NCBI GenBank assembly: GCA_038326325.1
Contig: JBBQJW010000004.1
Span: 57,417-121,416, forward strand
Direction of reading: 5' to 3'
DNA: 64,000 nt
Source: Chitinophagales bacterium
GTDB lineage: Bacteria > Bacteroidota > Bacteroidia > Chitinophagales > UBA10324
The notes beneath the pieces were generated by a model that was not told where the DNA came from, ran no database searches, and saw only the letters and a list, made by a program, of their open reading frames with translations. Of the stretch, positions 1 through 63,654 are shown one piece after another (within the stretch, counting starts at the first letter, position 1; each line of letters opens with the position of its first letter). Both the position numbers and the translations under genes were made by a program.

Positions 1-612
1 AACCCAACCGAGCTGAGCAGGTTTTAATTTATAGAAATATTTAGATGAATTTGCATCAAGGTAATTCTCCACAATATCAGTAGAAGATTCCTTCCAATTG
101 AAAAGAGAAGTGTTTGCAGGAGAAGGATCTTTTACATTATCATCAGCATAATACATTTGATTTTGCGCAGATACAGAACCACCTGGAATCGCAATAGTTA
201 AATTTTTTCCACTTGCTATTTTAAGCTTATGACCATATATATCACTTGCATCAAAATAAACTGATCCTTCTGTGATTAAAGGATTATTGTCACTAACAGT
301 AGGTGTTGAGTTTAAGGCCATAAATCCCCGAACATAATCACCTGTAACACTTAAAACCACCTGACCTGTAAAAGCAGAACCGTCTTCATTTGCAAATGTA
401 TTTGCATCAACAGAAAGTACTGCTGATTTTTTTAAAGTGTCATTTAAAATTCCGATAGCATTTTCAAATGAAATTTGTTCGCTTCCAAAAGCATCGTGCC
501 TGCTGAAATAATTTATTCCTTTCATAGGTCCGAAATCCTGTTGATCATTTCTGCAGGAAAAAAGCTCTATGCTAAAAATCACAACTAAGAAAAAAACGCT
601 AAAAATTTTCAT
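1..612 (-). CDS. Hypothetical secreted lipoprotein (3' end runs off the window start)
   Basis: The reverse frame is open from the ATG at 612..610 down to position 1. It is absent from the ORF track because no stop lies in the window. The N-terminus MKIFSVFFLVVIFSIELFSC resembles a signal peptide with a lipobox-like Cys. Confidence 0.5.
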   Translation of the reverse strand, partial: MKIFSVFFLVVIFSIELFSCRNDQQDFGPMKGINYFSRHDAFGSEQISFENAIGILNDTLKKSAVLSVDANTFANEDGSAFTGQVVLSVTGDYVRGFMALNSTPTVSDNNPLITEGSVYFDASDIYGHKLKIASGKNLTIAIPGGSVSAQNQMYYADDNVKDPSPANTSLFNWKESSTDIVENYLDANSSKYFYKLKPAQLGWV

Positions 613-720
613 GACGGTAATATTTTATTGAGGGGCAAATTAATAAAACTTCTTAAGAAAGTGTCAAACTCAATATCATTTTATGTTAATCGTCTCAATT
701 TATTACATATTTGTCGAATA

Positions 721-1308
721 ATGATAGTAATTGATAATACCATTATTTCAGAGGATCTAATCGATAAACAATTTGTTTGCAATCTTGAAAAATGCAAGGG
801 GGCATGTTGTGTTGAAGGTGAATCAGGAGCCCCTCTTGAACAAGATGAAATTGAAATTATGGATAAGATTTATGAAAAGGTAAAGCCCTATATGTTATCT
901 GATGGAATAAAAACAATTGAAGAATTTGGTAAGTGGGTAATTGATTCAGATGGTGATTTTGTAACACCATTAGTTTCAGGCAGAGGTAGATGTGCCTATG
1001 TTTTTTTTGATAATGGAATTGCGAAATGTGCAATTGAAAAAGCCAATGCGGATGGGAAAATTGATTTCAAAAAACCAATCTCGTGTCATTTATATCCTGT
1101 TCGAATTACGAAGCATAAAGATTATGATGCTGTAAATTATAATAGGTGGGAAGTTTGTTCTCCTGCTTGTGTAAATGGAAAAAAATTAGGTGTATCAGTG
1201 TATCAATTTGTTAAAACTGCTTTGATTAGAAAGTACGGCAACAATTGGTTTGAGCAATTGGAAGGAGCAGCAAAATTTGCAGAAGAATCTACCACCGAAA
1301 AAAAATAA
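721..1308 (+). CDS. DUF3109 family protein (Cys-rich)
   Basis: The motif CNLEKCKGACCVEGESGAPL plus later Cys residues fit my memory of Bacteroidota DUF3109 proteins. The track start at 628 is a TTG; the ATG at 721 (MIVIDNTIISEDL) is the more plausible start. Confidence 0.6.
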   Translation: MIVIDNTIISEDLIDKQFVCNLEKCKGACCVEGESGAPLEQDEIEIMDKIYEKVKPYMLSDGIKTIEEFGKWVIDSDGDFVTPLVSGRGRCAYVFFDNGIAKCAIEKANADGKIDFKKPISCHLYPVRITKHKDYDAVNYNRWEVCSPACVNGKKLGVSVYQFVKTALIRKYGNNWFEQLEGAAKFAEESTTEKK

Positions 1309-1403
1309 AATATTCTAAGGAAATACTCCAAGATATTATTTATAATTATAAAAATTTTCTTTTCTGAATTCGAAAACTCAATCCCTACTTTCGTCGGCAC
1401 TTT

Positions 1404-2378
1404 ATGAATCGCAATCTTGATGAAATTCGTAAGCCCGTTGAAAACGAATTAAGATTATTCGAAGAGAAATTCAGTGCATCGATGAAAACGAAAACACCTT
1501 TGCTCGATGCGATAATGAAATATATAGTTAAACAAAAGGGAAAGCGTGTTCGACCCATGTTTGTTTTTTTATCTGCCGCGGTTTCAGGAGAAATAACTGA
1601 AGCAACTTATCGTGGGGCTGCATTAATTGAACTGTTACATACTGCCACTCTCGTTCATGACGATGTAGTAGATAATTCAGATGAACGAAGAGGCTTTTTT
1701 TCCATTAACGCACTCTGGAAAAATAAAATTGCCGTTCTCGTTGGGGATTACCTGCTTTCAAAAGGATTATTACTTGCAGTAGGCAATAAAGATTTTAGAC
1801 TACTCGAAATTGTTTCCGATGCTGTTCGCGAAATGAGTGAAGGCGAATTGTTGCAAATTGAAAAAACACGCAAGCTGAATATTACAGAAGAAATTTATTT
1901 TGAAATTATCAGGCAGAAAACGGCAACGCTAATTTCATCGGCATGTGCAGTAGGAGCGGCTTCATCCAAAGCTTCAGATGAAATAATTTCCAAAATGAAA
2001 TTGTTTGGAGAAAAAGTTGGAATTGCTTTTCAGATAAAAGATGATTTGCTTGATTTTGGGAGTGAAGACACAGGAAAGCCACACGGCCTTGATTTGAAAG
2101 AAAAAAAAATGACTCTGCCACTTATTTATGCTTTGAGCAAAGCCTCATCATCAGAGAAAAAAAGAATAAAAAATATAATTCGAAATCATAACGATGAACC
2201 TAAGTTGGTTAATGAAGTAATTGAATTTATTAATAAAGAAGGAGGAATGCAGTATGCGACTGAACAAATGAATTTATATAGAGATGACTCAATAAAATTG
2301 CTAAGCGAGTTAAAAGAAAATAAATCTTTACAGTCCTTAAAAGACCTTGTTTTTTTTACCACTGAACGAAAAAAATAA
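1404..2378 (+). CDS. Polyprenyl diphosphate synthase (trans-isoprenyl diphosphate synthase family)
   Basis: Both Asp-rich motifs are present: LVHDDVVDNSDERRG (FARM) and FQIKDDLLDF (SARM). The length of about 324 aa is typical of octaprenyl/solanesyl-PP synthases. Confidence 0.85.
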   Translation: MNRNLDEIRKPVENELRLFEEKFSASMKTKTPLLDAIMKYIVKQKGKRVRPMFVFLSAAVSGEITEATYRGAALIELLHTATLVHDDVVDNSDERRGFFSINALWKNKIAVLVGDYLLSKGLLLAVGNKDFRLLEIVSDAVREMSEGELLQIEKTRKLNITEEIYFEIIRQKTATLISSACAVGAASSKASDEIISKMKLFGEKVGIAFQIKDDLLDFGSEDTGKPHGLDLKEKKMTLPLIYALSKASSSEKKRIKNIIRNHNDEPKLVNEVIEFINKEGGMQYATEQMNLYRDDSIKLLSELKENKSLQSLKDLVFFTTERKK

Positions 2379-2530: not shown

Positions 2531-4279
2531 ATGAGAAAAATTTACCTCTTATCAATCCTCTTAGGACTTAATTTATTAAGTGTTAATGTGAAGGCACAAA
2601 CTCCTTACGATACATCTGCTTATAAACCAATTTTGCCCCTATATCGCGATGTTATCGGAGATACAACAGTTATTTCAAAAAAGAATATGCCTCAGCAAAA
2701 ACAGTTTGAAAAGGGGCAATATATTTTTCCACCTAAACCAAAAAATAAATGGGAAGTTGGGTTAAATGGTGGATTATTATTTATTAGCGGTGATGTTTCT
2801 ACTAGAGGAGGATGGGGAGTTGGTCTTGATGTAAAGAAGTCTCTTGGATATGCTGTCAGTTTGAAAGGTCAATTTTTACATGGTTCAACAAAAGGAATTA
2901 ATTGGCAAGGAAACACAGGATTGGCAAACAATCCGGTTTTAACTTCAGCACACCCCGCTACAAATTATTATGGAAACGGAGGAATATTTTATTACAACTA
3001 CAAAACAGATATTGATGAAATTAATATGCAGGCTGTTCTTACTATTAATAATATAGGTTATCATAAAATTGCACGCGAAAGAAAATGTAATTTATATGGT
3101 GGATTAGGGGGCGGTTTTATGAATTATCGCACTATGATGGATGCATTGGATGCAAATGGTAATAGATATGATTTTCAATCAATTTATACCAATGGAACAT
3201 ATACTGATAGGAAAACTACTTTAGCCGCGTTGAAGAAAATTTTGGATGGTACTTATGAAACAGCAGCAGAAGGACAACCAGATCAACCTAAATTTTTTGA
3301 CAGGGTTACAAAACCTGTTATTACTGGAAGTATTGGCCTTGGGTTCCATTTAACTCATAGATTGAATTTAAATATTTCCGAAAAACTATCAATTACAAAT
3401 GATGACTTATTAGATGGTCAGCGCTGGCAGGAACATCCTTCTTCTGATCCTGTGTTAACAGGAAATTTTGATACCTATCATTATATCAGTGCCTCACTTG
3501 GATACTTTATTGGTGGAAGAAAAAGAGTTGAACCTTTATATTGGCAGAATCCAAACGACTATACTTATGATGCAATACAAACCTTAATTAAAAAGAATGT
3601 TGATGATTTAGTGGATACTGATGATGATGGAGTTGTAAATAGATTAGATAAAGAACCCGGAAGTGAACCTAATGCAATAGTTGATACACATGGTGTAACA
3701 CAGGATTCTGATAAAGACGGAATACCTGATGCTAAGGACAAGGATCCATTTTCACCCATTGGTGCTAAGGTTGATGTTGATGGAATTCCTACTGATACCG
3801 ACAAGGATGGTGTGCCAGATTATCATGATAAGGAAGTTAATACTAATCCTGCAGGATTAGTAGATGCAAACGGCAAAACAATCACAGGTGGAGGTGCCGG
3901 AGGTTACTGGTGGTTACCAATGATTTTTTATGATTTAGACAAAGACTTTATCAAACCTGAAATGTTTGAAAGAATGAAATACATTGCTACTGTAATGAAG
4001 ATGTATCCTGATTTAAAAATTGTTGCAGTTGGTCATACTGATATTCGCGCTTCAAATAAATATAATGATGATTTGTCAATGCGTCGCGTGAACAATGCAA
4101 AAAAATTCTTGTCTGATACTTATGGAATTGATGGTAGCAGGATCATAACTAAATCAAGTGGTGAAACTGATAATTTGGTTAAGAATCTTCCTGATGCTTA
4201 TAATGCGAAGTATGAAGGACAGCAATATTATAATCGTCGTGTAGAATTTAAAGTTTACGACTCTAAGACTGATAAATAA
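2531..4279 (+). CDS. OmpA family outer-membrane protein with thrombospondin type-3 (DxDxDGxxD) repeats
   Basis: Signal peptide, then repeated DTDDDGVVN / DSDKDGIPD / DTDKDGVPD calcium-binding motifs. The C-terminal OmpA-like domain is visible in VGHTD..., LSMRRV and NRRVEF. Confidence 0.85.
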   Translation: MRKIYLLSILLGLNLLSVNVKAQTPYDTSAYKPILPLYRDVIGDTTVISKKNMPQQKQFEKGQYIFPPKPKNKWEVGLNGGLLFISGDVSTRGGWGVGLDVKKSLGYAVSLKGQFLHGSTKGINWQGNTGLANNPVLTSAHPATNYYGNGGIFYYNYKTDIDEINMQAVLTINNIGYHKIARERKCNLYGGLGGGFMNYRTMMDALDANGNRYDFQSIYTNGTYTDRKTTLAALKKILDGTYETAAEGQPDQPKFFDRVTKPVITGSIGLGFHLTHRLNLNISEKLSITNDDLLDGQRWQEHPSSDPVLTGNFDTYHYISASLGYFIGGRKRVEPLYWQNPNDYTYDAIQTLIKKNVDDLVDTDDDGVVNRLDKEPGSEPNAIVDTHGVTQDSDKDGIPDAKDKDPFSPIGAKVDVDGIPTDTDKDGVPDYHDKEVNTNPAGLVDANGKTITGGGAGGYWWLPMIFYDLDKDFIKPEMFERMKYIATVMKMYPDLKIVAVGHTDIRASNKYNDDLSMRRVNNAKKFLSDTYGIDGSRIITKSSGETDNLVKNLPDAYNAKYEGQQYYNRRVEFKVYDSKTDK

Positions 4280-4333: not shown

Positions 4334-4714
4334 GTGAACGCCAAACTTTTCAATTATGGAAAACGATTTCATCAGAACCATCTGCTTAAATTTCCAGAGG
4401 TAACAGAGGATATTAAATGGGGACACGACTTGTGTTTTCTGATTGGTGAAAAAATGTTTTGTGTAACAGGAGTGGAAGGTGACTTTGGTGTTTCGTTAAA
4501 AGTAAGCGACGAAGAGTTTGAAGAACTGTCATCAAGAGATGGAATAATTCCTGCTCCGTATTTAGCGAGACACAAATGGATATTTATTAACGACCCAAAG
4601 TGTTTTACAAAAAGAGAATGGGAACATTATCTCAAACAATCTTATGAATTGATAAAATCAAAATTGAAAAAGAAGAAAGTTTTCTCACTCGAAGGGATTG
4701 GCAAAAAAAGGTGA
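4334..4714 (+). CDS. MmcQ/YjbR family DNA-binding protein
   Basis: FPEVTEDIKWGHDLCFLIGEKMFC and PAPYLARHKWI fit the YjbR fold family. Apparent GTG start. Confidence 0.65.
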   Translation: MNAKLFNYGKRFHQNHLLKFPEVTEDIKWGHDLCFLIGEKMFCVTGVEGDFGVSLKVSDEEFEELSSRDGIIPAPYLARHKWIFINDPKCFTKREWEHYLKQSYELIKSKLKKKKVFSLEGIGKKR

Positions 4715-4814: not shown

Positions 4815-5780
4815 TTAATGTCCTCCGATGTAACTGTTTAAATCAGAAACAGAAGATTCAAATTCAAATGCATCATTTACTTTAAAATAATTTCCTTTAT
4901 CGTAAGTGTGACCATAAGCAAATTTTGCAAATTCTAATTTCGATGCTTCGAAATCGAATAACTGCATAATTTGTTTTACCTGCTCAGCTACCACACAATT
5001 AGAACCTATGATCTGTTTAGCAATATCAAGTTTTGTACTCTCAAAAGATTTGCTTGCAATTGAAGATTTTGCAGATTCAAAATCACCGGGAGCCATCGGC
5101 ATCGGACAACCTATTGGTCCGCCATAACCTGGAACATAAACAACTGTTGATTGTGTAACAGTCGGGTCAACATAACCGCCGGAAGTTGTTGTTGTTTGGC
5201 TGTAAGTAGTAGTTGTTTGTGAAGAATTCATTCCTGTTCCGTCATTCACATTTACATTCATACCAACACCAACTCCGCCGAGATTCATTCCAACATTCAT
5301 GTTTACATTATCGTTTGGATTTCCTGTTGTCGTAGTTGTAGTTGTTGTTTGTTGAACTGTTCCACCAACTGGCTGTGTTACAATTGTAGTAGTTGGAATA
5401 GGTGAACCATAAACAACTACATATTGATTTGGAGCAGGCGGTGCATTTGGAATAATTGGAACAACCGACATCACGCGCATTACTATTTCTCCCTTCGTAT
5501 TTTTCTTAATGTTATAAGTGTATTCACCGGGATCAGTGAAGCCAATTGATTTATCTATGTCTGGAAGATTGTTGTTCTCGAAAATTATTTTGCACTTATA
5601 CATTGTTGCATTTAATCCTGAAACTTTCACATTGGTTTGTGGGTCGGGATTTTGTTTTACTGCATTGATAACAACCCAGAATTTTTCTCCGTCTTCAGAG
5701 AAAAAAACACAGTTGAATTGTGCATCTGCTTTCAGTATAAAACTTAAAAACAGAACAGCGAGAATTGTAAATTTTTTCAT
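4815..5780 (-). CDS. Secreted protein with Thr-rich low-complexity linker and C-terminal DUF4476-like domain
   Basis: Signal peptide MKKFTILAVLFLSFILKADA, poly-T/N/G linker, and a C-terminal FESAKSSI...FEASKLEFAKFAYGHTYDKGNYFKV pattern typical of DUF4476. Confidence 0.6.
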   Translation of the reverse strand: MKKFTILAVLFLSFILKADAQFNCVFFSEDGEKFWVVINAVKQNPDPQTNVKVSGLNATMYKCKIIFENNNLPDIDKSIGFTDPGEYTYNIKKNTKGEIVMRVMSVVPIIPNAPPAPNQYVVVYGSPIPTTTIVTQPVGGTVQQTTTTTTTTGNPNDNVNMNVGMNLGGVGVGMNVNVNDGTGMNSSQTTTTYSQTTTTSGGYVDPTVTQSTVVYVPGYGGPIGCPMPMAPGDFESAKSSIASKSFESTKLDIAKQIIGSNCVVAEQVKQIMQLFDFEASKLEFAKFAYGHTYDKGNYFKVNDAFEFESSVSDLNSYIGGH

Positions 5781-7089: not shown

Positions 7090-8082
7090 TCAATTCTTTT
7101 TTTTCTGATTTTCACTTATAAATTCTTCGCAAACCCATTTTATAGTTTCATTAAAATCGCGGTACCTGAAATTCAGCGCTTCACAAACTTTAGAGTCATC
7201 ATAAAAAAATTTATTGCCCGAAGTGCGAGCCGATTCAACAGTGACCAATGGTTCTTTCCCAATTAATGAAAGAAGAGATAAAAATCTCGCGCCGATAATA
7301 GCAGTAGATGAATTCACTTTAAATTTTGGTCGAGGTTTATTGAATGCATCAGCAACAGCAAAGAAAAAATCTTTGTAAGTCATGTTCGCGGCGCTGCAAA
7401 CAAATCGTTCGTTTACGATTTCACTTTTCATTAACTGAACGGCAATCTCACAAACATCTCGCACATCAGTCATTCCATTTCCGCCAACCGGATATGCTTT
7501 CAATCCGTTGTAAACTGTTTTAAATAATTTGCAGGTGTTATCATTCCAATCGCCCGGTCCGAAAATCATTGTCGGATTAATTACTACGGCATTTAATCCT
7601 TCCGCCACTCCACGCCACACTTCCATTTCAGATTTATGCTTGCTGATTGCGTATCGCGTGTTGAGTTTATTTTCTTCCCACTTATGTTTTTCTGAAATCA
7701 GTTCCTGTGCTTCCGTTCTTCCGAGCGATGCGACCGAACTTACATGTAACAGTTTTTTTATTCCTGAATTTAAACACTCATTCACCACATTGGCTGTGCC
7801 TTCCACATTCACTTTCATCATTCGTGCTTCATCTTTCTTATAGAAAGAAACTATAGCGGCGCAGTGATACACCTGTTCGCAATCCTTCATCGCTTCTTCC
7901 AATGAAAACACATCAAGCACATCACCAATCATCCATTCCACTTTTGAAATTTCTTCTTCAGTTAAAATGAAATTCTTTTTTCCGCGATGCAACGCGCGAA
8001 CAGAAGTATTTTCTTTCAGCAATCTTCTGATTAAATACTGACCGAGAAAACCTGTTGCGCCAGTGACTAAAACTTTTTGCAT
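7090..8082 (-). CDS. NAD-dependent epimerase/dehydratase family (extended SDR) protein
   Basis: N-terminal VLVTGATGFLGQYL Rossmann motif and YAISK catalytic motif. I prefer the ATG at 8082 over the longer track ORF, which runs to 8163. Confidence 0.8.
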   Translation of the reverse strand: MQKVLVTGATGFLGQYLIRRLLKENTSVRALHRGKKNFILTEEEISKVEWMIGDVLDVFSLEEAMKDCEQVYHCAAIVSFYKKDEARMMKVNVEGTANVVNECLNSGIKKLLHVSSVASLGRTEAQELISEKHKWEENKLNTRYAISKHKSEMEVWRGVAEGLNAVVINPTMIFGPGDWNDNTCKLFKTVYNGLKAYPVGGNGMTDVRDVCEIAVQLMKSEIVNERFVCSAANMTYKDFFFAVADAFNKPRPKFKVNSSTAIIGARFLSLLSLIGKEPLVTVESARTSGNKFFYDDSKVCEALNFRYRDFNETIKWVCEEFISENQKKKN

Positions 8083-8172
8083 CAGCGGCGAAAGTAATTC
8101 AGAGTTAAGAGTGAAAATGATTTCATGGAAAAAGAAAAGTTCTCTCAGAAAATATTTCCCCACTTCATTTTT

Positions 8173-8236: not shown

Positions 8237-10126
8237 ATGAGTGATGCCATCAAGCACGAGTGCGGAGTAGCGCTAATCAGATTATTAAAGCCGCTTGATT
8301 TTTATAAGGAGAAATACGGCACGCCCCTTTACGGGCTCAACAAATTATATCTGCTCATGGAAAAGCAGCACAACCGCGGTCAAGACGGTGCGGGAATCGG
8401 AGTGGTGAAACTTGGAAATAATTCGCGCTCGCATTTCATGAATCGTCAGCGCTCGACTTCTCCTCAGGCGATTTCAGAAATATTTCAGCAGATAGGTTCT
8501 AAAATTTCTGAACTCAAAAAACTGAACTCAGATTTATTCGACAACACCGAATGGCTGAAAAAGAACGCGCAGTTCGTGGGCGAATTGCTCATGGGGCATT
8601 TGCGTTACGGCACGCACGGAAAAAACGAACTGGAAAGTTGCCATCCGTTTATCATTAACGACCAATCTGCTTTGCGCAGTTTGCAGATGTGCGGCAATTT
8701 TAATCTCACCAACATCGAAGACTTAGGAAATTATATTGAAGAGAGTGGCGACAAGCCCGACACTTCCATCGTGCTTGAACGAGTGAGCGCGCACATGGAA
8801 ACGGAGATTGAGCGAGTGCATAATGAACTGAAACAGCTCACTGTTTCGCGTACCGAACTCAATCAGAAAATTGGCGAGCAAGTAAACTTTCACAACATTC
8901 TGAAAAACGCGACCGCTGAATTCGATGGTGGTTACAACATGGTTGGCTTGAGCGGAACCGGTGTCGCTTTCGTGCTACGCGACGCGCATGGCATTCGCCC
9001 TTCGTTTTATTATGTGAATGATGAAGTGGTGGTCGCCGCGTCGGAGCGCACCGCGATTCAAACCGCGTTCAATGTTCCGGTTAGTGATATTAAAGAACTC
9101 ACTCCCGGTTGCGCGCTCATCATTGACCAGAATGGAAATGTGGGCGAACACGAATGTCAGCCGCCGCAGAAAAAAACTTCTTGCAGCTTCGAGCGCATTT
9201 ATTTCAGCCGCGGAAGTGATACGGATATTTATAACGAGCGAAAAAAATTAGGTGAGTATTTAACCCCGCAGGTGGTTGAAGCTATTGACCACGATTTTAA
9301 AAACACGGTTTTCTCTTTCATTCCCAACACCGCCGAAATTGCATTTTACGGATTGATAAAAGGCGGAGAAGATGTGCTGAACGAATGGAAGATGAAGGCC
9401 ATTCGCGAACCCGCCGCTCTCACCGATGATAACCGCGCCCGCGAAATTATTTCGCGCCGTTTGCGCATTGAAAAAATCGCCATCAAGGATGTGAAGATGC
9501 GCACCTTTATCACGCAGGACAGTGAGCGCAACGAAATGGTGGAGCATGTATACGACATCACTTACGGCAGCATTCGCCCAAACATTGATTCCCTTGTAGT
9601 GATTGACGACAGCATCGTGCGCGGCACCACGCTCAAGCGCAGCATCATAAAAATGCTCGACCGTTTACAGCCGAAAAAAATTGTAATCGTATCAAGCGCT
9701 CCGCAAATTCGTTACCCCGACTGTTACGGTATTGATATGAGTAAGATGGGCGAGTTCATCGCCTTTCGAGCGGCGGTCGCCTTGCTGAAGGAGAGAGGAA
9801 TGGAAAATAAATTAGATGAAGTTTATGATTTGTGTAAAATGGAAAATGAAAAATCGGTTGAGCAAATCGTAAACAAAGTGAAACTGATTTACGAACCATT
9901 CACCGCTGAAGAAGTGGCGGCGAAGATCGCGGAGTTAGTAAAAGATGAAAGCGTGAACGCGGAAGTGCAGGTGATATTTCAGAAAATAGAAAACCTGCAT
10001 CGCGCCATTCCCAATCATATCGGCTCGTGGTACTTCAATGGAAATTATCCGACACACGGCGGCAACAAAGTAGTGAACCGCTCCTTCATTAATTATATGG
10101 AAGGAAAAAGTGTGAGGGCTTATTGA
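8237..10126 (+). CDS. purF: Amidophosphoribosyltransferase (long Bacteroidota-type, class II glutamine amidotransferase N-terminus)
   Basis: N-terminal MSDAIKHECGVALI (Ntn Cys), NRGQDGAGIG, and a PRTase-type VVIDDSIVRGTT motif. Confidence 0.85.
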   Translation: MSDAIKHECGVALIRLLKPLDFYKEKYGTPLYGLNKLYLLMEKQHNRGQDGAGIGVVKLGNNSRSHFMNRQRSTSPQAISEIFQQIGSKISELKKLNSDLFDNTEWLKKNAQFVGELLMGHLRYGTHGKNELESCHPFIINDQSALRSLQMCGNFNLTNIEDLGNYIEESGDKPDTSIVLERVSAHMETEIERVHNELKQLTVSRTELNQKIGEQVNFHNILKNATAEFDGGYNMVGLSGTGVAFVLRDAHGIRPSFYYVNDEVVVAASERTAIQTAFNVPVSDIKELTPGCALIIDQNGNVGEHECQPPQKKTSCSFERIYFSRGSDTDIYNERKKLGEYLTPQVVEAIDHDFKNTVFSFIPNTAEIAFYGLIKGGEDVLNEWKMKAIREPAALTDDNRAREIISRRLRIEKIAIKDVKMRTFITQDSERNEMVEHVYDITYGSIRPNIDSLVVIDDSIVRGTTLKRSIIKMLDRLQPKKIVIVSSAPQIRYPDCYGIDMSKMGEFIAFRAAVALLKERGMENKLDEVYDLCKMENEKSVEQIVNKVKLIYEPFTAEEVAAKIAELVKDESVNAEVQVIFQKIENLHRAIPNHIGSWYFNGNYPTHGGNKVVNRSFINYMEGKSVRAY

Positions 10127-10697: not shown

Positions 10698-10742
10698 GTA
10701 ATTTTTTTGGAATACGGTGTAACACCCACTAAACCTCTCATA

Positions 10743-10763
10743 CTTGCGAAGCAATCTGTAAAG
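10743..10763. repeat. Short copy of dispersed TTGCGAAGCAATCTrTAA element
   Basis: CTTGCGAAGCAATCTGTAAAG resembles TTTTGAAGCAATCTATAATAG at 44504-44524. Confidence 0.4.
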
Positions 10764-10769
10764 ATTTAA

Positions 10770-11291
10770 TTAATTTGTAACAGATAAATTTTTATCTAAT
10801 TGAAAAGTATCAGTTTTTAGAATAAGAGCACCTAAGCCATTTTTCCCTCTATACTTATGTGTTATTGAAAAACCTATAAACTCTTGTTTAAAATTATTTC
10901 TTAATCCATCCAAATAAATATGAATTAAACTATCTCTTTTTCTATAACTCTTTTGCATTTCTCTCATTTCCTTAATTGCAGGTATTTTCTCAACATCAAA
11001 AGTGTAGCCCTGTGAAGAATTTTCATCTTTCAAATTCTGAACCTGCTCGTCTATATATGTATTAGTGTTTTTAATTGTATCGATAATAGCCAAACTATCC
11101 TGATACTGTTTAAGGGAAACAACTGAACTAAAAGTAGAATCTAATTTTCCAAACTCAACAGATTCATAGCTTGAAGCATCATTAAGATTTTTTTGTAAAT
11201 AATCTCTAACTGATTTTTCTGCTATTTGTTGAGGATTCTGACTACAGGAAATAATAAAGGAAGAGATGATTAAAATGCATAGATTTTTCAT
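10770..11291 (-). CDS. Hypothetical lipoprotein (173 aa)
   Basis: MKNLCILIISSFIISCSQ is a signal peptide plus lipobox Cys. I recognise no domain. Confidence 0.5.
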   Translation of the reverse strand: MKNLCILIISSFIISCSQNPQQIAEKSVRDYLQKNLNDASSYESVEFGKLDSTFSSVVSLKQYQDSLAIIDTIKNTNTYIDEQVQNLKDENSSQGYTFDVEKIPAIKEMREMQKSYRKRDSLIHIYLDGLRNNFKQEFIGFSITHKYRGKNGLGALILKTDTFQLDKNLSVTN

Positions 11292-12773: not shown

Positions 12774-12808
12774 ATTCACAATTCACGATTGACCATTCAC
12801 CCTTCACT
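12774..12808. repeat. Tandem heptamer array ATTCACY x5
   Basis: ATTCACA|ATTCACG|ATTGACC|ATTCACC|CTTCACT between convergent higA and the methyltransferase gene. The same unit recurs at 14268-14281 and 28763-28790. Confidence 0.65.
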
Positions 12809-47433: not shown

Positions 47434-47506
<73 letters not shown>

Positions 47507-49766: not shown

Positions 49767-49942
49767 GCAATTGATTTTATGCAGCAAACTTAATATCAAC
49801 TTTAAATTTTCATAAATATTTTTTGATTATTTTTTATTAAAACAATGTTTTAGCCATAAATCGTAAAATATTTTTTACATATTTTAGTTAAAATGTAAAA
49901 TTATTTCATCATAGTTCAATAATTATTCAAATTAAATTTTAA

Positions 49943-54129: not shown

Positions 54130-55176
54130 CTATTTGGTGCTGTTCTGTTTTAAAATTTCCAATTCTTTTTCGAGCTGGTCTAATTTTAAACGCAGCGAAG
54201 GTAAGTGACGAAACACAACTTGTGACCTTAATGATTCAGTATAGTCAAACGCGGGAGAACCGGTAAATGCTTTGCCGGGAACTTCAATACTTTTTGAAAC
54301 TCCACTTTGGGCGTTTATTCGAGTGCGATCGGCGATTGTAATGTGACCTACAAAACCAACTTGTCCGCCAATCATGCAATTTTTTCCAATCTTGGTGGAA
54401 CCCGATACGCCTGTTTGCGCGGCTATTACAGTGTTCTCGCCAATCTCAACATTGTGTGCGATCTGAACGAGATTATCGAGCTTCACTCCGCAGCGAATAA
54501 TTGTACTTCCTAAAGTTGCTCGGTCAATTGTTGAGTTTGCTCCAATTTCCACATCATCTTCAATTATCACATTTCCGAGTTGCGGAATTTTCATGTACGA
54601 ACCATCAGTCAATGGCGCATGACCAAAACCATCGGAACCAATCACCACACCCGAATGAATGACGCAATCGTTTCCAATTTTTGTTTCAGCGTAAATTTTC
54701 ACTCCAGAATAAATAATCGTTCGCGATTTTATTTCACATCGGTCGCCGATAGTCGTGTTTGGAAAAATTTTCACTCCATCGTGTATCACTGTTTCCTCGC
54801 CGATGTAAGCGAAGGCACCAATATATACATCCTTACCAATTTTAGCTGATAAAGAAATAAAACTCGGTTGCTCCATTCCTGTTTTATCAGTGAGAGCAGT
54901 ACTGAATTTTTGCATCACAAAAGCGAAAGCTGCGTAAGGTTCCTCTACCCGAATGATTGCCTGTAAATTTTTATTTTCAATCTTAACTGAATCACCAACC
55001 AATAATGCTGATGCTTTTGTAGTGGATACCTGCTCCGTATATTTCGGATTGGCGATGAATGTAACAGCGCCAACCTGCGCATCTTCAATACGAGCAGGAT
55101 GAGTAATTATAGTTTCAGGATTTCCTTCGAGGCGACCGTTGAGCAAACGGCATATTTCCCCGGCTGTAAAATTCAT
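54130..55176 (-). CDS. lpxD: UDP-3-O-(3-hydroxyacyl)glucosamine N-acyltransferase
   Basis: N-terminal uridine-binding domain, a long hexapeptide helix, and a C-terminal coiled helix. Position upstream of lpxC/fabZ. Confidence 0.9.
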
Positions 55177-55666: not shown

Positions 55667-55904
55667 ATGTTTTTCGCTTTATTGCTGTCCTGCGTTTAAA
55701 CAGTTCAGGTTTTATTTCTTTGAGTTACTTCCCAATACATACCGCAACTTTATTGCTGTTACACTTCTCTTTCAAATTTTGTTTTCCTTTATCTTTCAAC
55801 CATTTGTATGCTTATTTATGCAAAAGGTCTATTGCAGTTGCAATTACTCTTGCCGCTGGGTCTTTACTTTTTTATTTTAAAAAGAGTGGAATTACTAATT
55901 AACT

Positions 55905-56139: not shown

Positions 56140-56664
56140 TTATTTTTTCTTACCACCAATTTTAAAACCAATTGGTTTTCTTGGTTTTGGTTTTTCAATT
56201 TGAGGTTTTGAAGTAAGGTATTCAATTATCTCGTTAATGTTTTCAATCTTCTTATTGAATTTAGATTCGAGTTCGTCAATTCTCTTATTCAGCAATGCAA
56301 AATCATTATTGTATTGCTTTAGGAGAATGAAAGCGCGAACAATAGAAATATTTACATTGATTGCAGTGTCGCTGCGCAGTGCACTTGAGAGCATTGTAAT
56401 GCCATGTTCAGTAAATGCGTAAGGTAATTTTTGTGTGCCTCCACGCTTTTCCGTTTTTGATGTCACAATTTGTGACATCAAAACTTTGAACTCTTCGGGA
56501 TTGAGTTGAAACATAAAACCAAATGGGAATCGCTTAATATTTCTTTTAACCGCCTGAACAAGCACTCTTGTCTGTACTCCATACATTTCTGCCAAATGAA
56601 AATCAAGCATAACTTTCTGTCCACGAATAATAAAAATCTTCTTTTGAATAATTACAAGTTCCAT
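56140..56664 (-). CDS. ORF6N domain-containing (KilA-N-related) DNA-binding protein
   Basis: IRGQKVMLDFHLAEMYGVQTRVLVQAVKRNIKRFPFGFMFQL and LPYAFTEHGITMLSSALRSDTAINVNISIVRAF are hallmark ORF6N motifs. Confidence 0.8.
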   Translation of the reverse strand: MELVIIQKKIFIIRGQKVMLDFHLAEMYGVQTRVLVQAVKRNIKRFPFGFMFQLNPEEFKVLMSQIVTSKTEKRGGTQKLPYAFTEHGITMLSSALRSDTAINVNISIVRAFILLKQYNNDFALLNKRIDELESKFNKKIENINEIIEYLTSKPQIEKPKPRKPIGFKIGGKKK

Positions 56665-56676: not shown

Positions 56677-59310
56677 TTAAACTGTAACAGATTGAACTTT
56701 TGATAAAGCAATCTCAATCGCCCGTTTCAATCCTTCAGCGTTTGTTCCACCGGCGGAAGCGAAATGTGGTTGACCACCACCGCCGCCTTTAATCTCAACA
56801 GAAATTTCCTTGATGATTTTTCCCGCGTCTAATTTTTTTTCTTTAGAAACCGCTTCATCAATCATCACGGCGAGCATCGCTTTGCCTCCCGCTTCCGCAC
56901 CGACCACCATAAACAGATTACCAACTTCATTCTTCGTGTCGTAACACAATTTTTTCAGAGCGTCCATCGAACCCACATCAGCAATTCCGCTAATCACTTT
57001 CAGTCCGTTTATTTCTTCCACACTTTTTATCAATCTGTTTTTCTCTGCAGTGATTTGAATATTGCCAAACCGCTCCACTTCCTTTTTCAGATTTTCATTT
57101 TCTGTTTTCAGTTGAGTAATGGAAGCGAGCACATCTTTCGGATGATTGAATTCTTCTTTTATATTTTGTATCGTCTGTAAATTCTCACGGATAAATTTTT
57201 CAGCAGCTTCGCCGGTTATGGCTTCTATTCTTCGCACACCCGCAGCAACAGCAGTTTCAGCGGTAATGATGAAAAAACCGATTTGCCCTGTGCTCTTTGC
57301 GTGAGTGCCGCCACACAACTCAACAGAATAATTTTTATCGAAAGTGATGACACGAACAAAGTCCCCGTACTTCTCACCGAACAAAGCCATTGCTCCGGTT
57401 GCGGTCGCGTCTTTGATTGGAACATTGCGTTGCTCATTCAAATGAATGTCTTCCCGAATTTTTTCATTCAACATCGATTGCACTTTCTCCAATTCTTCAT
57501 CAGTCATTTTCGCGAAGTGAGAAAAATCGAATCGCAAATAATCAGGAGAAACAAGAGAACCTTTCTGCTGCACATGAGTGCCCAGAATTTTTCTAAGTGC
57601 TGCGTGAAGCAAATGCGTGGCACTGTGATTTAAAATTGTTTTACCGCGAAGCGAGGCATCAATCTTGGCTGTTACACTTCCATCCATCTTTGCAGGAAGT
57701 TTATTTACATAAAGAATGATCAGCTCATTTTCCTTCTTGGTATCGAGTACCGAAATTTTTTCATCACCAAAAATCAGAACTCCTTTATCACCAACCTGTC
57801 CGCCGCTCTCTGCATAGAAAGGTGTCTTACCTAATACTAACTGAAAGACTTTTTTGTCTTTTGCTTTCTGCTCTCGAACCTTCAACACCACTGTTTCAGT
57901 TTCTAAAAAATCATAACCGATAAATTCTGTTCGGTCTGCTTCATTAATTATTTTCCAATCGCCTGTTACACTTACTGCATCTTTTCGTGAGCGGTCTTTT
58001 TGTTGTTTCATTTCAGCAGTGAAACCAATTTCATCCAGTTTCCATTTCTTTTCATCAACAATCAACTTTGTTAAATCGAGAGGGAAACCATAAGTGTCAT
58101 ACAATTCAAATGCAGTTTTTCCATCGAGTGTAAAATCCTTCGTCGCTTTTTCTTCCAACGAAGAAATTCTTTTCAATCCTGCTTCTAAAGTTTTTAAGAA
58201 AGAAGTTTCTTCTTCGAGAATTACTTTCTGAATAAAATCCTGTTGCGCTTTCAATTCTGGAAATACTCCGTCAAATTGTTCGGCAAGCACCGGCACCAAT
58301 TCATTTATGATTGGTGATTCAATATTCAAACTGCTATATGAATAACGAACGGCGCGACGAAGAATTCTTCTTATAACATAACCTGCTCCGGTGTTAGAAG
58401 GCAACTGTCCGTCAGCAATTGCAAAACTGATTGCACGAATGTGGTCGCTCATCACACGCATTGCAATGTCAGATTTTTCATTCGCGCCGTAATTGATTCC
58501 ACTTTTTTTCGAAATGAAATTTATCAGCGGAGTAAAAACATCTGAATCATAATTGCTTCGCTTCTGCTGTAACACCCGCACCAACCGTTCAAAACCCATT
58601 CCTGTATCAACATGCTTCGCAGGAAGAGTTTCTAATGAACCATCCGCCTTCCGGTTGTATTGAATAAATACATTGTTCCATATTTCAATTACCTCAGGGT
58701 GACTTGCATTCACTAAATTTTTTCCATCACCTTTTTTTCTTTCTGCTTCCGGGCGAATGTCAACATGAATTTCAGAACACGGACCACACGGACCAGTATC
58801 ACCCATCTCCCAGAAATTATCTTTCTTGTTTCCGTTGATGATTTTATTTTCATCAATCAGTTTACTCCATATAGTATATGCCTCGTTGTCGCGCTCTAAT
58901 TTTTCTTTTGCATCACCTTCAAAAACTGTTACATATAATTGGTCTTTCGGAATTTTATAAACTTCAGTCAGCAGTTCCCACGCCCACTCAATTGCTTCCT
59001 TCTTAAAGTAGTCACCGAAACTCCAGTTGCCCAACATCTCGAACATGGTGTGGTGGTAAGTATCAATTCCAACTTCTTCCAAATCATTATGCTTTCCACT
59101 CACACGCAAACATTTTTGTGTATCAGCAATGCGCGGTGCAGTCGGAGTTTGATTACCAAGAAAAAAATCTTTAAACTGATTCATGCCCGCATTCGTGAAC
59201 ATCAGTGTCGGGTCGTTCTTCACCACAATCGGAGCCGATGGAACAATGAGATGGTTCTTCGATTTAAAAAATTCGAGAAAAGTTTTTCTGATTTCTTTTG
59301 ATGTCATCAT
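56677..59310 (-). CDS. alaS: Alanine--tRNA ligase
   Basis: 877 aa with class II core motifs (FTNAGMNQFK, GDYFK), the editing-domain HxxxH (HSATHLLH), and a C-terminal DHHA1 GGGG motif. Confidence 0.95.
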   Translation of the reverse strand: MMTSKEIRKTFLEFFKSKNHLIVPSAPIVVKNDPTLMFTNAGMNQFKDFFLGNQTPTAPRIADTQKCLRVSGKHNDLEEVGIDTYHHTMFEMLGNWSFGDYFKKEAIEWAWELLTEVYKIPKDQLYVTVFEGDAKEKLERDNEAYTIWSKLIDENKIINGNKKDNFWEMGDTGPCGPCSEIHVDIRPEAERKKGDGKNLVNASHPEVIEIWNNVFIQYNRKADGSLETLPAKHVDTGMGFERLVRVLQQKRSNYDSDVFTPLINFISKKSGINYGANEKSDIAMRVMSDHIRAISFAIADGQLPSNTGAGYVIRRILRRAVRYSYSSLNIESPIINELVPVLAEQFDGVFPELKAQQDFIQKVILEEETSFLKTLEAGLKRISSLEEKATKDFTLDGKTAFELYDTYGFPLDLTKLIVDEKKWKLDEIGFTAEMKQQKDRSRKDAVSVTGDWKIINEADRTEFIGYDFLETETVVLKVREQKAKDKKVFQLVLGKTPFYAESGGQVGDKGVLIFGDEKISVLDTKKENELIILYVNKLPAKMDGSVTAKIDASLRGKTILNHSATHLLHAALRKILGTHVQQKGSLVSPDYLRFDFSHFAKMTDEELEKVQSMLNEKIREDIHLNEQRNVPIKDATATGAMALFGEKYGDFVRVITFDKNYSVELCGGTHAKSTGQIGFFIITAETAVAAGVRRIEAITGEAAEKFIRENLQTIQNIKEEFNHPKDVLASITQLKTENENLKKEVERFGNIQITAEKNRLIKSVEEINGLKVISGIADVGSMDALKKLCYDTKNEVGNLFMVVGAEAGGKAMLAVMIDEAVSKEKKLDAGKIIKEISVEIKGGGGGQPHFASAGGTNAEGLKRAIEIALSKVQSVTV

Positions 59311-62086: not shown

Positions 62087-62096
62087 TGAAAAATAG

Positions 62097-62516
62097 TTAA
62101 GCAGCTTTATAATAAATAATCATCGTGCGTGAATCATCAATCTGTTGAAGTACCAATTCATCAGTTGTGATTTTGATGATTTTCATTTTGTAAGATGTCT
62201 TGGTTGTTTTATCAGTAATGGTAATTGTTGTTCCGGCTTCATCAATTGTCCATGTGCCCGGAATAAAACCATCGGGTGCTAAACCTTGCTGCACGGAATG
62301 GTCAGTATTAAAAACCAAACGATATTCTTTTTGTGCTTCATCAGCAACTTGTGTTTTTGTTCCGTCTTCAATTTTTACCAGGCCCCAGCTTTTGCAAAGT
62401 CGTGCAGATGTTACATCTGTTGTTCCCTGTGCTTGCGATGAAAACGAAATCATCAGAAATAAAATACAAACACTTGCAGCAAGTGAATGAAAAAAAAATT
62501 TGGTGGTGCTTTTCAT
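62097..62516 (-). CDS. Secreted lipocalin-like domain protein (about 139 aa)
   Basis: There is a signal peptide from the ATG at 62516 (MKSTTKFFFHSLAASVCILFLMISFSSQAQG). GTWTIDEAGTTITIT....Y.I..IT.DELVL is a Lipocalin_4-like pattern. The longer track ORF (TTG at 62705) would overlap hppD. Confidence 0.45.
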   Translation of the reverse strand: MKSTTKFFFHSLAASVCILFLMISFSSQAQGTTDVTSARLCKSWGLVKIEDGTKTQVADEAQKEYRLVFNTDHSVQQGLAPDGFIPGTWTIDEAGTTITITDKTTKTSYKMKIIKITTDELVLQQIDDSRTMIIYYKAA

Positions 62517-62529
62517 TTGTATGTGTTGA

Positions 62530-63654
62530 TTATAAATTACCTCTGAGTTCCTGTTCGCGTTCGATAGATTCGAACAGTGCTTTAAAATTTCCTTTACCAA
62601 AAGATTGCGCGCCTTTGCGTTGAATGATTTCAAAAAATAAAGTGGGTCGGTCTTCCACCGGTTTTGTAAACAACTGTAACAGATATCCTTCATCGTCGCG
62701 GTCAACTAATATTTTTAATTTGCGAAGTATGTTCATGTCTTCGTCAATCACGCCAACTCTTTTTTGCAAATCATCATAATATGAATCGGGCACATCAAGA
62801 AAATCAATTCCTCGTCGTCTTAACTCTGTAACAGTTTCAATGATGTTATCTGTGGCCATTGCGATGTGTTGCACGCCTTGCGAATGATAAAATTCAAGAT
62901 ACTCTTCGATCTGCGATTTCTTTTTTCCTTCAGCAGGTTCGTTGATTGGAAATTTCACATACCCATTTCCGTTGCTCATCACTTTACTCATGAGCGCCGA
63001 ATATTCAGTGCTGATATCTTTATCGTCGAACGATAAAATATTTCTGAAGCCCATCACCTTTTCATAAAACTCAACCCAGGTATTCATTTCGCCCCAGCCA
63101 ACATTTCCAACACAGTGGTCAACATGTTTTAGCCCGACAGGAATTGTTTCGAAGGTTGATCTCCATTCTCTGAATCCGGGAAGAAAAATTCCGTTGTAAT
63201 TTTTTCGCTCTACAAAAACATGAACAGTATCACCATATAATTCTATACCAGCCATGCGCACTTCACCGTTATCATCTTTCAAAGTTTTCGGTTGCATGTA
63301 TGGCTTTGCTCCGCGCTTCGTAGTTTCTTCAAAAGATTTGTAAGCATCATCAACCCACAACGCAAGCACCTTCACCCCATCGCCATGTTTTTCTATGTGC
63401 TGCGAGATTTCATTTCCGGGGTGTAACGGTGTGGTAAGTACCAATGTGATTTTATTCTGACGCAATACATAACTCGCACGGTCGCGCACCCCTGTTTCTG
63501 GCCCCGCATAAGCAAGTGGTTGAAATCCAAAAGCAGTGCGATAGAAATAAGACGACTGCTTCGCGTTGCCGACATAAAATTCAATGTGGTCGGTTCCGTT
63601 GAGCGGAAGAAAATCTTTTTCCGTTGAGGTAGTTGGTTTGGTTAGCGTTTCCAT
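62530..63654 (-). CDS. hppD: 4-hydroxyphenylpyruvate dioxygenase
   Basis: Two VOC-fold modules with iron ligand contexts (HVDHCVGNV, GVQHIA, FFEIIQRKG) and a C-terminal FGKGNFKALFESIE. Confidence 0.9.
   Translation of the reverse strand: METLTKPTTSTEKDFLPLNGTDHIEFYVGNAKQSSYFYRTAFGFQPLAYAGPETGVRDRASYVLRQNKITLVLTTPLHPGNEISQHIEKHGDGVKVLALWVDDAYKSFEETTKRGAKPYMQPKTLKDDNGEVRMAGIELYGDTVHVFVERKNYNGIFLPGFREWRSTFETIPVGLKHVDHCVGNVGWGEMNTWVEFYEKVMGFRNILSFDDKDISTEYSALMSKVMSNGNGYVKFPINEPAEGKKKSQIEEYLEFYHSQGVQHIAMATDNIIETVTELRRRGIDFLDVPDSYYDDLQKRVGVIDEDMNILRKLKILVDRDDEGYLLQLFTKPVEDRPTLFFEIIQRKGAQSFGKGNFKALFESIEREQELRGNL

Follow-up and report, generated by a model that had tools for sequence, protein, structure and literature searches.

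TGTWACA, a palindrome near saturation in a 64-kb Chitinophagales segment and apparently patchy among freshwater relatives: a possible self-DNA tag

The stretch of DNA analyzed here (64,000 nucleotides from a Chitinophagales bacterium, contig JBBQJW010000004.1, positions 57,417 to 121,416; below, the window) has a GC content of 38.1% and carries 53 open reading frames (ORFs), which are ordinary housekeeping, envelope and type IX secretion system (T9SS) cargo genes. Pfam was run on 50 of them, the other three being carB, mfd and alaS. Scattered through these genes and the spacers between them is the 7-bp palindrome TGTWACA, which we call the core; copies of the 9-bp form CTGTWACAG are called exact, and cores with C or G on both sides (STGTWACAS) are called S-flanked. 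The window constitutes our focal data, and approximately 200 kb in total were examined from relatives. A symmetric and frame-blind force that acts at the level of the DNA has driven this palindrome to near saturation, and the force is active in some lineages and not in close relatives.

A recount gave 83 cores (1.30 per kb) and 22 exact sites in the window, where an independent-base model predicts 13.2 cores and about 0.5 exact sites, in agreement with the original prediction, which had estimated about 13 and 0.5. All 22 exact positions listed there were indeed exact, the 83 cores stand at the places it reported, and its division of the cores was reproduced as well: 59 of the 83 are S-flanked, among the 61 non-exact cores there are 38 in which a single outer base departs from CTGTWACAG, and 23 of the 83 have the core alone with neither outer base of the 9-mer correct. 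The absence of exact copies from the first 13 kb also stands, the first one starting at 13334, while the statement that about half of the exact sites reach ACTGTWACAGT was too generous, as 7 of 22 do so and 16 of 22 are extended on at least one side. Every 8-kb bin holds between 7 and 14 cores, at least one core is found in 38 of the 53 ORFs, and TGTWACA is the most over-represented palindrome of the window (z = 24).

For quantification of this excess, several null models were compared with the observed 83 cores and 22 exact sites. Markov chains of orders 1-3 gave 8.7-13.1 cores and 0.1-0.65 exact sites, dinucleotide shuffles gave 0.25 exact sites (maximum 2), and a codon-position shuffle gave 14.4 cores and 2.5 exact sites. 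As decisive we regard the shuffle of synonymous codons inside each gene, under which no protein and no gene's codon usage is altered; it left 19.7 ± 3.7 cores (at most 30) and 3.6 exact sites (at most 7), figures that include five non-coding copies left fixed by the shuffle. The observed counts are 4-6 times above the codon-shuffle null, and overall the core is enriched 6-9 times and the 9-mer about 90 times. An order-5 Markov chain did reach the number of cores (70 ± 9.5), but only through training on 6-mers whose counts the motif itself inflates, and since the 9-mer is in excess even so (22 observed against 8.5 ± 3.0), a high-order Markov null is an unfair test for refutation. Of the nulls proposed in the original prediction, the codon shuffle fails to reproduce the counts, and a high-order Markov chain (order 5) reproduces the cores but not the 9-mer; Markov orders 1-3 fail on both. 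It is clear that the excess of the palindrome arises at the DNA level, beyond chance and codon usage.

The 78 cores that lie inside ORFs occupy three coding contexts, all of which had been described correctly: 57 are read as xxT-GTW-ACA (Val-Thr), 13 as xTG-TTA-CAx (Leu) and 8 as TGT-WAC-Axx (Cys-Tyr or Cys-Asn). The predominance of the first frame, together with a mild enrichment of the Val-Thr dipeptide (97 against 72), is what a translation-level artefact would produce, in which a preferred codon pair GTW-ACA or an abundant peptide created the motif. However, 67 of the 97 Val-Thr dipeptides are coded GTW-ACA where about 19 are expected from codon usage, and 57 of these 67 follow a codon with T as its last base. 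When a permitted position is defined as a place where the amino-acid sequence allows the core by synonymous choice, 78 of the 129 permitted positions are occupied, with occupancies of 0.61, 0.52 and 0.73 in the three frames, so the other two frames are filled equally well; on this measure, outgroup loci of comparable GC reach 0.08-0.16. Most sites are removed by the synonymous shuffle even though it preserves the proteins and codon usage, the flanks are symmetric across codon positions and recur on spacer copies (see below), and the motif is missing in relatives of similar codon usage. The earlier claim that the motif is not simply a favoured peptide is borne out by the codon shuffle and by the similar occupancy of all frames, and the translational explanation is so improbable that we regard it as effectively excluded. 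Exact 9-mers in the carB loci of Flavobacteriaceae were considered in the same connection and rejected, their apparent enrichment being one orthologous conserved peptide counted several times.

Five copies are found in spacers, all of them S-flanked on both sides: 10717-10725 (GTGTAACAC; spacer 10698-10769), the exact site 37808-37816 (CTGTTACAG; spacer 37739-37866), 44426-44434 (GTGTAACAG), which starts at the last base of the carB stop codon, and, in the carB-der spacer, the exact site 44578-44586 (CTGTAACAG) and 44694-44702 (GTGTAACAG). A sixth S-flanked copy (55756-55764; CTGTTACAC) lies in a doubtful ORF of 101 aa with no Pfam match and is probably non-coding. The non-coding occurrence that had been claimed is therefore real, with the same C/G flanks as on the genic copies, and 5-6 copies are seen where about 1.4 would be expected in 6.7 kb of spacer.

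Aligning all sites on their centre, the information is confined to R(-5) S(-4) TGTW and its mirror image. Over the 166 half-sites position -4 is C in 82, G in 55, A in 19 and T in 10, with the order C>G>>A>T in both half-sites, position -5 has a weak preference for A or G, and at every position beyond -4 the information content is at most 0.13 bits. The preferred form is R-S-TGTWACA-S-Y with CTGTWACAG as optimum. No enrichment in the window was found for TGTSACA (3 copies), TGTACA (4 copies) or wider spacings, and GTWAC outside the TGTWACA context occurs 69 times against about 60 expected from dinucleotides, so that the unit is the 7-bp core with a preferred 9-11-bp form. Within the Val-Thr frame the upstream flank, a second codon position, is C in 24, G in 20, A in 8 and T in 5 cases, the downstream flank, a first codon position, is G in 32, C in 16, T in 6 and A in 3, and the central base on the coding strand is A or T equally often (30 and 27). 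On the plus strand of the window TGTAACA outnumbers TGTTACA by 52 to 31, much of which arises because the Leu frame forbids TAA; the relative L299 (described below) shows the opposite direction (8 to 13). Such symmetry of flanks and centre is what one expects of a duplex site read by a protein with two-fold symmetry.

As nothing is conserved more than 5 bases from the centre, the motif is not a mobile element or a protein repeat. Dispersed repeats, whether ends or relics of a miniature mobile element or repeated protein domains, had come into consideration when a scan of viral contigs for motif pairs (two exact 9-mers 130-160 bp apart) gave loci very rich in the 9-mer. These loci turned out to be protein repeats with 25-35 conserved flanking bases, for example KAVTAG units in the contigs L175, L106 and L119, unlike the sites of the window, where the information content beyond the site is nil, the sites are spread over 38 unrelated genes and the spacer copies have no longer repeat around them; in particular none was seen around the three copies of the carB-der spacer. 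Repeats are the least probable explanation of all and can effectively be discarded. The IMG/VR contigs L175, L106, L119, L186 and L100 were accordingly rejected as instances of the same phenomenon: they carry up to 1.8 exact sites per kb, but these belong to giant repeat proteins in which a peptide module recurs many times, as in ADGKAVTAGSYA.

The carbamoyl phosphate synthase protein CarB of the window is at most 76% identical to those of Chitinophagaceae and Saprospiraceae metagenome-assembled genomes in a scan of species-representative genomes, and a carB scan of metagenome contigs found none closer than 76% among the matches listed; homologues of Mfd and of the type III glutamine synthetase (GSIII) are labelled “Chitinophagales bacterium” in their sources. 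The nearest relatives are freshwater metagenome contigs, reached via different marker genes (AlaRS, Mfd or GSIII). Where the synonymous shuffle leaves 19.7 of the 83 cores in the window, the more distant relative L299 (Logan SRR14117730; mostly unlinked genes, GSIII region 72.6% identical in nucleotides) is likewise at full strength: it has 1.27 cores per kb (21 against 7.05), occupies 17 of 24 permitted positions and shows the same flank preference of C over G as the window. Intermediate densities are found in the closer relatives L092 (Mfd 92% identical in amino acids, aligned regions 82% in nucleotides; 0.60 per kb, 14 against 3.2), L095 (Mfd 91%, mfd 85% in nucleotides; 0.74 per kb, 10 against 2.8), L081 (AlaRS 84-85%; 0.57 per kb, 13 against 5.2) and, more weakly, L086 (AlaRS 84-85%; 0.53 per kb, 12 against 6.1, p 0.0125). 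L083 (AlaRS 82%; 0.35 per kb) is not significant with 8 against 4.8, and L084 (AlaRS 82%) has 0.41 per kb. No excess is seen in L297, which comes from the same sample as L083 (GSIII region 74.5% in nucleotides; 0.26 per kb, 4 against 2.9), nor in L089 (AlaRS 78%) and L090 (AlaRS 70%), both with 0.18 per kb, and none of 80 carB loci from Bacteroidota and beyond was enriched, their density being at background. TGTWACA is the top over-represented palindrome in the window, L092, L095, L081 and L086, and in none of the outgroups. The possibility that the enrichment is a peculiarity of the window is answered by its presence in 38 of 53 genes there and its recurrence at unlinked loci of relatives. 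Within the sequences sampled, the motif does not reach beyond a shallow group of freshwater Chitinophagales-like lineages, its distribution inside this clade is apparently patchy, and the pattern suggests a lineage-specific determinant.

Two other palindromes may be mentioned here. The AT-rich AAATATTT is the second most over-represented one of the window (46 copies against 10.8 expected) and is also enriched in L081, L083 and L003; as the enriched contigs include relatives that lack TGTWACA, it appears to be a separate and more general feature. The outgroup L090, in which TGTWACA is lacking, carries AGTWACT 10 times in 22.6 kb, often as CAGTWACTG (for example at 4682, 7325, 15447, 15924 and 20794), against an order-2 expectation of 1.8 and 3.8 in the synonymous shuffle (p 0.0025, weak after multiple testing), and this may be an alternate palindrome that shares the GTWAC centre.

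Conservation and gain of sites were followed in regions aligned by blastn; a few dozen sites underlie the statistics, and the relatives are in part not independent of one another. The sites of the relatives are kept in the window in 8 of 10 cases for L092, 3 of 3 for L095, 3 of 4 for L081, 2 of 3 for L083 and 4 of 5 for L086, in total 20 of 25, where same-frame control 7-mers are identical at a rate of 0.16-0.43 (0.16-0.35 without L095); further retention was seen for L299 (2 of 2) and L297 (1 of 2). Here and below the sites are strandless, being palindromes, the strand in brackets is that of the ORF, sites that are S-flanked but not exact are given as S-flanked, and the frame is Val-Thr where no other is named (the sites at 25449, 34513, 57669 and 58927 are given without a frame). 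Common to L092 are the exact site 13334-13342 (CTGTTACAG) and the core 13368-13374 (GTGTAACAT) in ORF 12807-13832(-), the S-flanked site 25449-25457 (CTGTAACAC), whose centre is flipped between A and T, and the core 25539-25545 (ATGTAACAC; Cys-Tyr frame) in ORF 25123-25884(-), and the S-flanked site 30047-30055 (GTGTAACAG) in ORF 29302-30573(+); the S-flanked sites 33054-33062 (CTGTAACAC) and 33637-33645 (CTGTTACAC; Cys-Tyr frame) of mfd (32414-35794(+)) are common to L092 and L095. In all, two shared sites have the central A/T flipped with the motif kept. The two exact sites of ORF 62530-63654(-), 62674-62682 (CTGTAACAG; CTG-TTA-CAG, Leu-Leu-Gln) and 62826-62834 (CTGTAACAG), are both common to L081 and L086. 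In the GSIII gene (47571-49799(-)) the S-flanked site 48183-48191 (CTGTAACAC; Leu frame) is common to L299 and the core 48932-48938 (TTGTAACAT; Cys-Tyr frame) to L297 and L299, and at the S-flanked site 49127-49135 (GTGTAACAC) both of these have AGTAACT; two further S-flanked sites of the gene are 48768-48776 (GTGTAACAG; Leu frame) and 49511-49519 (GTGTAACAC).

Of the five sites of alaS (56677-59310(-)) none is present in two outgroups, some are common to closer relatives and one is found in the window only. They are the exact site 56682-56690 (CTGTAACAG) in the final codons, the S-flanked sites 57669-57677 (CTGTTACAC; common to L083 and L086, not in outgroups), 57963-57971 (CTGTTACAC) and 58567-58575 (CTGTAACAC; Leu frame, common to L081 and L086), and the core 58927-58933 (CTGTTACAT; common to L083, one base off in L081 and L086). 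The site at 57963 is created by SVT in the AlaRS of the window where all relatives have SET.

Eight sites are found in the window but not in L092, compared pairwise and hence with the polarity of changes set without a DNA-level outgroup. Six of them coincide with amino-acid differences that give Val-Thr in the window: PVD in L092 against PVT at the exact site 15164-15172 (CTGTAACAG; ORF 14286-15422(-)), NFE against SVT at the S-flanked site 25833-25841 (GTGTTACAC; ORF 25123-25884(-)), SVS against TVT and SSSW against SVTV at the exact sites 28120-28128 (CTGTTACAG) and 28621-28629 (CTGTAACAG) of ORF 27825-28985(+), SAQI against SVTV at the S-flanked site 29783-29791 (GTGTAACAG; ORF 29302-30573(+)), and EIK, in L095 as well, against TVT at the core 33406-33412 of mfd (CTGTTACAT). 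The remaining two need synonymous changes only, one (TTG to TTA) at the core 15058-15064 (GTGTAACAT; Leu frame, ORF 14286-15422(-)) and three, relative to both L092 and L095, at the core 34513-34519 of mfd (GTGTAACAA). The question raised in the original prediction of whether sites arise by synonymous changes is thus answered with yes for two of the eight and with amino-acid replacement for six. The window-only sites differ from their orthologues at 3-6 of the 7 core bases, transversions included, and they stand at variable residues. Around residue 642 of Mfd, the window and its two nearest relatives read FPVTVDY in place of the widely conserved FPCTVDY, and the Cys>Val replacement, which creates the exact site 34338-34346 (CTGTAACAG), was apparently driven at this conserved residue by the DNA motif. 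The Val-Thr total in eight shared proteins is similar (18 and 16, no net gain), and sites seem to have been relocated to tolerant positions rather than simply added. On the evidence of these alignments, the force keeps existing copies and adds others, at a cost to synonymous and to some non-synonymous positions.

The other sites of the window are distributed as follows. Its first part has the S-flanked site 342-350 (CTGTAACAC; ORF 1-612(-)), the core 960-966 (TTGTAACAC; ORF 628-1308(+)), the core 1633-1639 (CTGTTACAT; ORF 1404-2378(+), xTG-TTA-CAx frame), the S-flanked sites 3693-3701 (GTGTAACAC; ORF 2531-4279(+)) and 4461-4469 (GTGTAACAG; ORF 4334-4714(+)), the S-flanked site 5153-5161 (GTGTAACAG) and the core 5376-5382 (GTGTTACAA) of ORF 4815-5780(-), and the core 7745-7751 (ATGTAACAG; ORF 7090-8163(-), xTG-TTA-CAx frame). 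ORF 8237-10126 (629 aa) has no Pfam domain, a GC content of 0.46 that is high for the window, and no motif; part of it is 86% identical in nucleotides in L092.

Between 10193 and 12757 lie six short ORFs (87-173 aa) with no Pfam match and a GC content of 0.28-0.37, in the place where L092 has an FGE-sulfatase gene, and this cluster is likely to be a recently acquired islet. The only motif copy in these ORFs is a core near the 3' end of ORF 10770-11291(-) (10776-10782; TTGTAACAG), which adjoins the stop codon, and no core is found between 10783 and 13333. Motif copies are equally lacking in a HepT/MNT toxin-antitoxin pair and in an ORF6N (KilA-N-like DNA-binding) gene. The latter (56140-56664) stands directly downstream of alaS where all relatives have gatB, and a search of viral contigs with its protein found no relatives.

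The HepT/MNT pair belongs to a 9.6-kb block (15468-25048) which has no counterpart between the flanking genes in L092 and which also encodes a LuxR-type response regulator, a Y_Y_Y sensor kinase, and RCC1-repeat and other T9SS cargo proteins; being motif-rich, with 16 cores, it is not a recent foreign insertion. Just before it stands the S-flanked site 14906-14914 (GTGTAACAG; ORF 14286-15422(-)). Inside the block, ORF 16976-20086(-) has the cores 17209-17215 (TTGTTACAC; Cys-Asn frame) and 18881-18887 (CTGTAACAT), the S-flanked sites 17659-17667 and 20011-20019 (both CTGTTACAC) and the exact site 19307-19315 (CTGTAACAG; CTG-TTA-CAG, Leu-Leu-Gln), and ORF 20196-21527(-) has three exact sites, 20210-20218, 20720-20728 and 21494-21502 (all CTGTAACAG), and the S-flanked site 21182-21190 (GTGTAACAG). 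They are followed by the S-flanked site 21829-21837 (GTGTAACAG; ORF 21572-23227(-)) and by ORF 23255-25048(-) with the core 23414-23420 (CTGTTACAT), the S-flanked sites 23559-23567 (CTGTTACAC; Cys-Asn frame), 24361-24369 (CTGTTACAC) and 24646-24654 (GTGTAACAC) and the exact sites 23809-23817 and 24439-24447 (both CTGTTACAG).

On either side of mfd are S-flanked sites at 30699-30707 (GTGTTACAC; ORF 30590-32035(-), Cys-Asn frame) and 37284-37292 (GTGTAACAC; ORF 35867-37738(+)), and further on are the S-flanked site 38483-38491 (GTGTTACAC; ORF 37867-38787(-), Cys-Asn frame) and the core 39119-39125 (TTGTTACAC; ORF 38820-39515(+)). ORF 39561-40316(+) holds the cores 39767-39773 (CTGTAACAT) and 39911-39917 (ATGTAACAA), the S-flanked site 40087-40095 (GTGTAACAG) and the exact site 40226-40234 (CTGTTACAG; Cys-Tyr frame); ORF 40313-41431(+) holds the S-flanked site 40382-40390 (GTGTTACAG; Leu frame), the exact site 40530-40538 (CTGTTACAG) and the core 41155-41161 (ATGTAACAT); and carB (41607-44426(+)) holds the exact sites 41779-41787 (CTGTAACAG) and 43264-43272 (CTGTTACAG). 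Beyond the carB-der spacer come the cores 45809-45815 (CTGTTACAA) and 46139-46145 (ATGTAACAT) and the S-flanked site 46306-46314 (GTGTAACAC) of ORF 45113-46417(-), and the core 46651-46657 (CTGTTACAA; ORF 46414-47307(-)). A tRNA gene at 47434-47506, between era and the GSIII gene, is the sole Rfam match of the window. The last part has two exact sites in ORF 51251-51874(-) (51578-51586 and 51731-51739; both CTGTAACAG and Leu-Leu-Gln), the S-flanked sites 52379-52387 (CTGTTACAC; ORF 51852-52652(-)) and 52991-52999 (CTGTAACAC; ORF 52727-54127(-), Leu frame), and the cores 55060-55066 (ATGTAACAG; ORF 54130-55176(-)) and 62409-62415 (ATGTTACAT; the doubtful ORF 62200-62490(+)).

Distances of 139-156 bp from core to core are in excess (9 pairs against 1.9 expected, for example 14907/15058, 40088/40227/40383/40531, 44427/44579, 51579/51732 and 62675/62827), and there is a deficit below 140 bp. 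The spacing signal at 140-160 bp has p ~0.08 after a scan of all distances and is absent in L092 and L299; being marginal and not recurring, it is probably due to chance.

Among known systems the cyanobacterial palindrome HIP1 (GCGATCGC), with its alternate cyanobacterial palindromes, comes closest. It too is a short palindrome found about once per kb in genes and spacers and in all frames, its sites are conserved between relatives beyond background and its one-base variants deviate mainly at the outermost bases (PMC5861425, PMC4390886); it is also sporadically distributed among related genomes. TGTWACA differs in its unrelated, AT-rich sequence of odd length with a degenerate W centre and without GATC or CG, in its host phylum (Bacteroidota, Chitinophagales-like), and in being apparently far younger and shallower, with full strength in some species and a weak or absent signal in relatives at 72-80% nucleotide identity. 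In its excess, frame independence, conservation and outer-base deviants, TGTWACA is a highly iterated palindrome at the sequence level. The DNA uptake sequences (DUS) of Neisseriaceae and the uptake signal sequences (USS) of Pasteurellaceae likewise occur about once per kb on both strands in a lineage-specific manner, with one-off variants also enriched, and their genic copies are placed at poorly conserved, tolerant residues with altered peptides and are nearly absent from genes without homologues (PMC2817400). The choice of HIP1 and uptake sequences as closest analogues in the original prediction is borne out, and its statement that no Bacteroidota equivalent had been described agrees with full-text literature searches, which found no description of the motif as a genomic feature and no HIP-like or uptake sequence in Bacteroidota. 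Points that it did not contain are the replacements of amino acids, the patchy and shallow distribution, and the fact that relatives conserve one another's sites.

In the explanation that we favour, TGTWACA would be a genome-wide tag on duplex DNA of the HIP1 or uptake-sequence type, read as a symmetric site by a putative dimeric protein specific to the lineage; the most plausible candidates are a DNA methyltransferase and/or a partner protein recognizing the (methylated) site. Alleles bearing the motif would be favoured when conspecific DNA is taken up or recombined, and copies would spread through a molecular drive as described for USS and DUS and now proposed for methylated HIP1. Here we infer the reader or writer protein and its nature, the methylation of the sites, and that uptake or recombination, rather than repair or direct selection, would be the favouring step. 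The multi-base, protein-altering gains at variable residues and the near-absence from orphan genes, as in uptake sequences, point towards such a mechanism, as do the palindromic shape with the outer-base pattern of HIP1 and the reports that methylated HIP1 raises transformation efficiency (bioRxiv 10.1101/2024.09.10.611283) and co-varies with DNA-uptake genes (bioRxiv 10.64898/2026.06.24.733823). We give a probability of roughly 40% to a self-DNA tag amplified through uptake or recombination, possibly in a methylation-dependent manner. The wider formulation falls not far short of even odds: a young, self-propagating DNA-tag system in freshwater Chitinophagales-like Bacteroidota, with a putative symmetric reader/writer and biased uptake, recombination or repair, which would fill approximately 60-70% of the codon-permitted positions in some species and rewrite amino acids, with sister species showing it in part or not at all.

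Several observations weigh against the tag explanation. Direct selection for a chromosomal function would give the same sequence pattern, the retention test is based on only about 25 sites, and, the relatives having been reached from different marker genes, the patchiness lacks a resolved phylogeny. Among the 53 ORFs of the window there is no gene for a DNA methyltransferase, a restriction enzyme, Vsr or competence, the lack of competence genes being a difference from DUS and USS, and the literature searched reports neither sequence-specific DNA uptake nor a receptor for it in Bacteroidota. DUS and USS, 9-12 bases long, are asymmetric and accompanied by AT tracts at their flanks or by pairing as terminators, whereas TGTWACA is palindromic, and the Neisseria copies concentrate in spacers and terminators, whereas TGTWACA has no spacer preference, with 0.75 copies per kb in spacers and a slightly higher 1.36 per kb in genes.

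An alternative is a repair-bias ratchet, in which a resident methyltransferase would mark GTWAC or TGTWACA and methylation-dependent mismatch or very-short-patch repair would fix mutations that create or extend sites, the abundance being a by-product without function. The odd-length palindrome with a W centre has the typical shape of a type II methyltransferase target, and Elhai's ratchet model for HIP sequences (PMC4390886) accounts both for the 38 sites in which the 9-mer is missed by one outer base and for the frequency of about one site per kb, which is the saturation level it predicts. The C>T neighbours TATWACA/TGTWATA are mildly low, at 0.66-0.73 of expectation, a value from a small sample that lies inside the spread of the other one-off neighbours (0.56-2.85), none of which is strongly depleted or enriched. 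However, the window-only sites, with several core differences each, transversions and replacements among them, do not reflect a single T>C step of the Vsr kind, the core itself is enriched and not its extension alone, and neither a methyltransferase nor a Vsr gene lies within the 64 kb searched.

A known process of this type is the effect of very-short-patch repair on CCWGG in E. coli, where Dcm is the methyltransferase and Vsr the repair enzyme. There too an odd palindrome with a W centre, in that case a methyltransferase target, is raised in frequency by a process at the DNA level, but the effect of Vsr is modest and proceeds by one T>C step that depletes CTWGG, while TGTWACA is enriched 6-9 times as core and about 90 times as 9-mer, with no clearly depleted neighbour and with several substitutions per gain. 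Altogether we consider the ratchet unlikely.

Of similarly low probability is an array of binding sites for an abundant dimeric nucleoid-associated or chromosome-organising protein, with purifying or positive selection holding about one site per kb. It would account for a symmetric site with flexible TG/CA steps and for the conservation of sites between relatives, as in HIP1, where selection and a nucleoid role have been proposed (PMC5861425). Moreover, the sole match to the sequence in the literature is TGTWACAW, the ChIP-seq consensus of the Salmonella regulator OmpR, which is nucleoid-protein-like (PMC3586657), showing that a common DNA-binding fold can read this sequence. The regulatory sites of OmpR, in enterobacterial promoters, number in the tens, in contrast to thousands of mostly intragenic copies; that the core is shared is a chance match, whose sole use is to prove that the sequence is readable by a winged-helix protein. 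The nucleoid proteins that are known accept degenerate sites, and they neither impose an occupancy of 60% of permitted positions nor rewrite proteins; the strong, weak or absent enrichment among related species is hard to square with an essential architectural role, and the spacing signal is marginal and not repeated in L092 or L299.

For three decades the role and spread of HIP1 have been debated in terms of selection, repair by-product and uptake signal, and an independent case with an unrelated sequence in another phylum would help. As TGTWACA goes from full strength to absence among close species, a correlation of occupancy with gene content could identify the protein behind the motif. The substitutions that the motif drives (Glu>Val, Cys>Val, Glu-Ile-Lys>Thr-Val-Thr) can mimic positive selection and distort analyses of codon usage and dN/dS, and in binning, or in the recognition of newly acquired DNA, the motif gives a sharp compositional signal. 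If the tag explanation is true, this would be the first system of the HIP or uptake-sequence type outside Cyanobacteria and Proteobacteria, and its recent, patchy spread should let comparative genomics map the causal gene. A tag that governs uptake or recombination would be the first such signal in Bacteroidota, and in that case placing the motif on constructs, methylated if needed, might help to transform these uncultured-type lineages.

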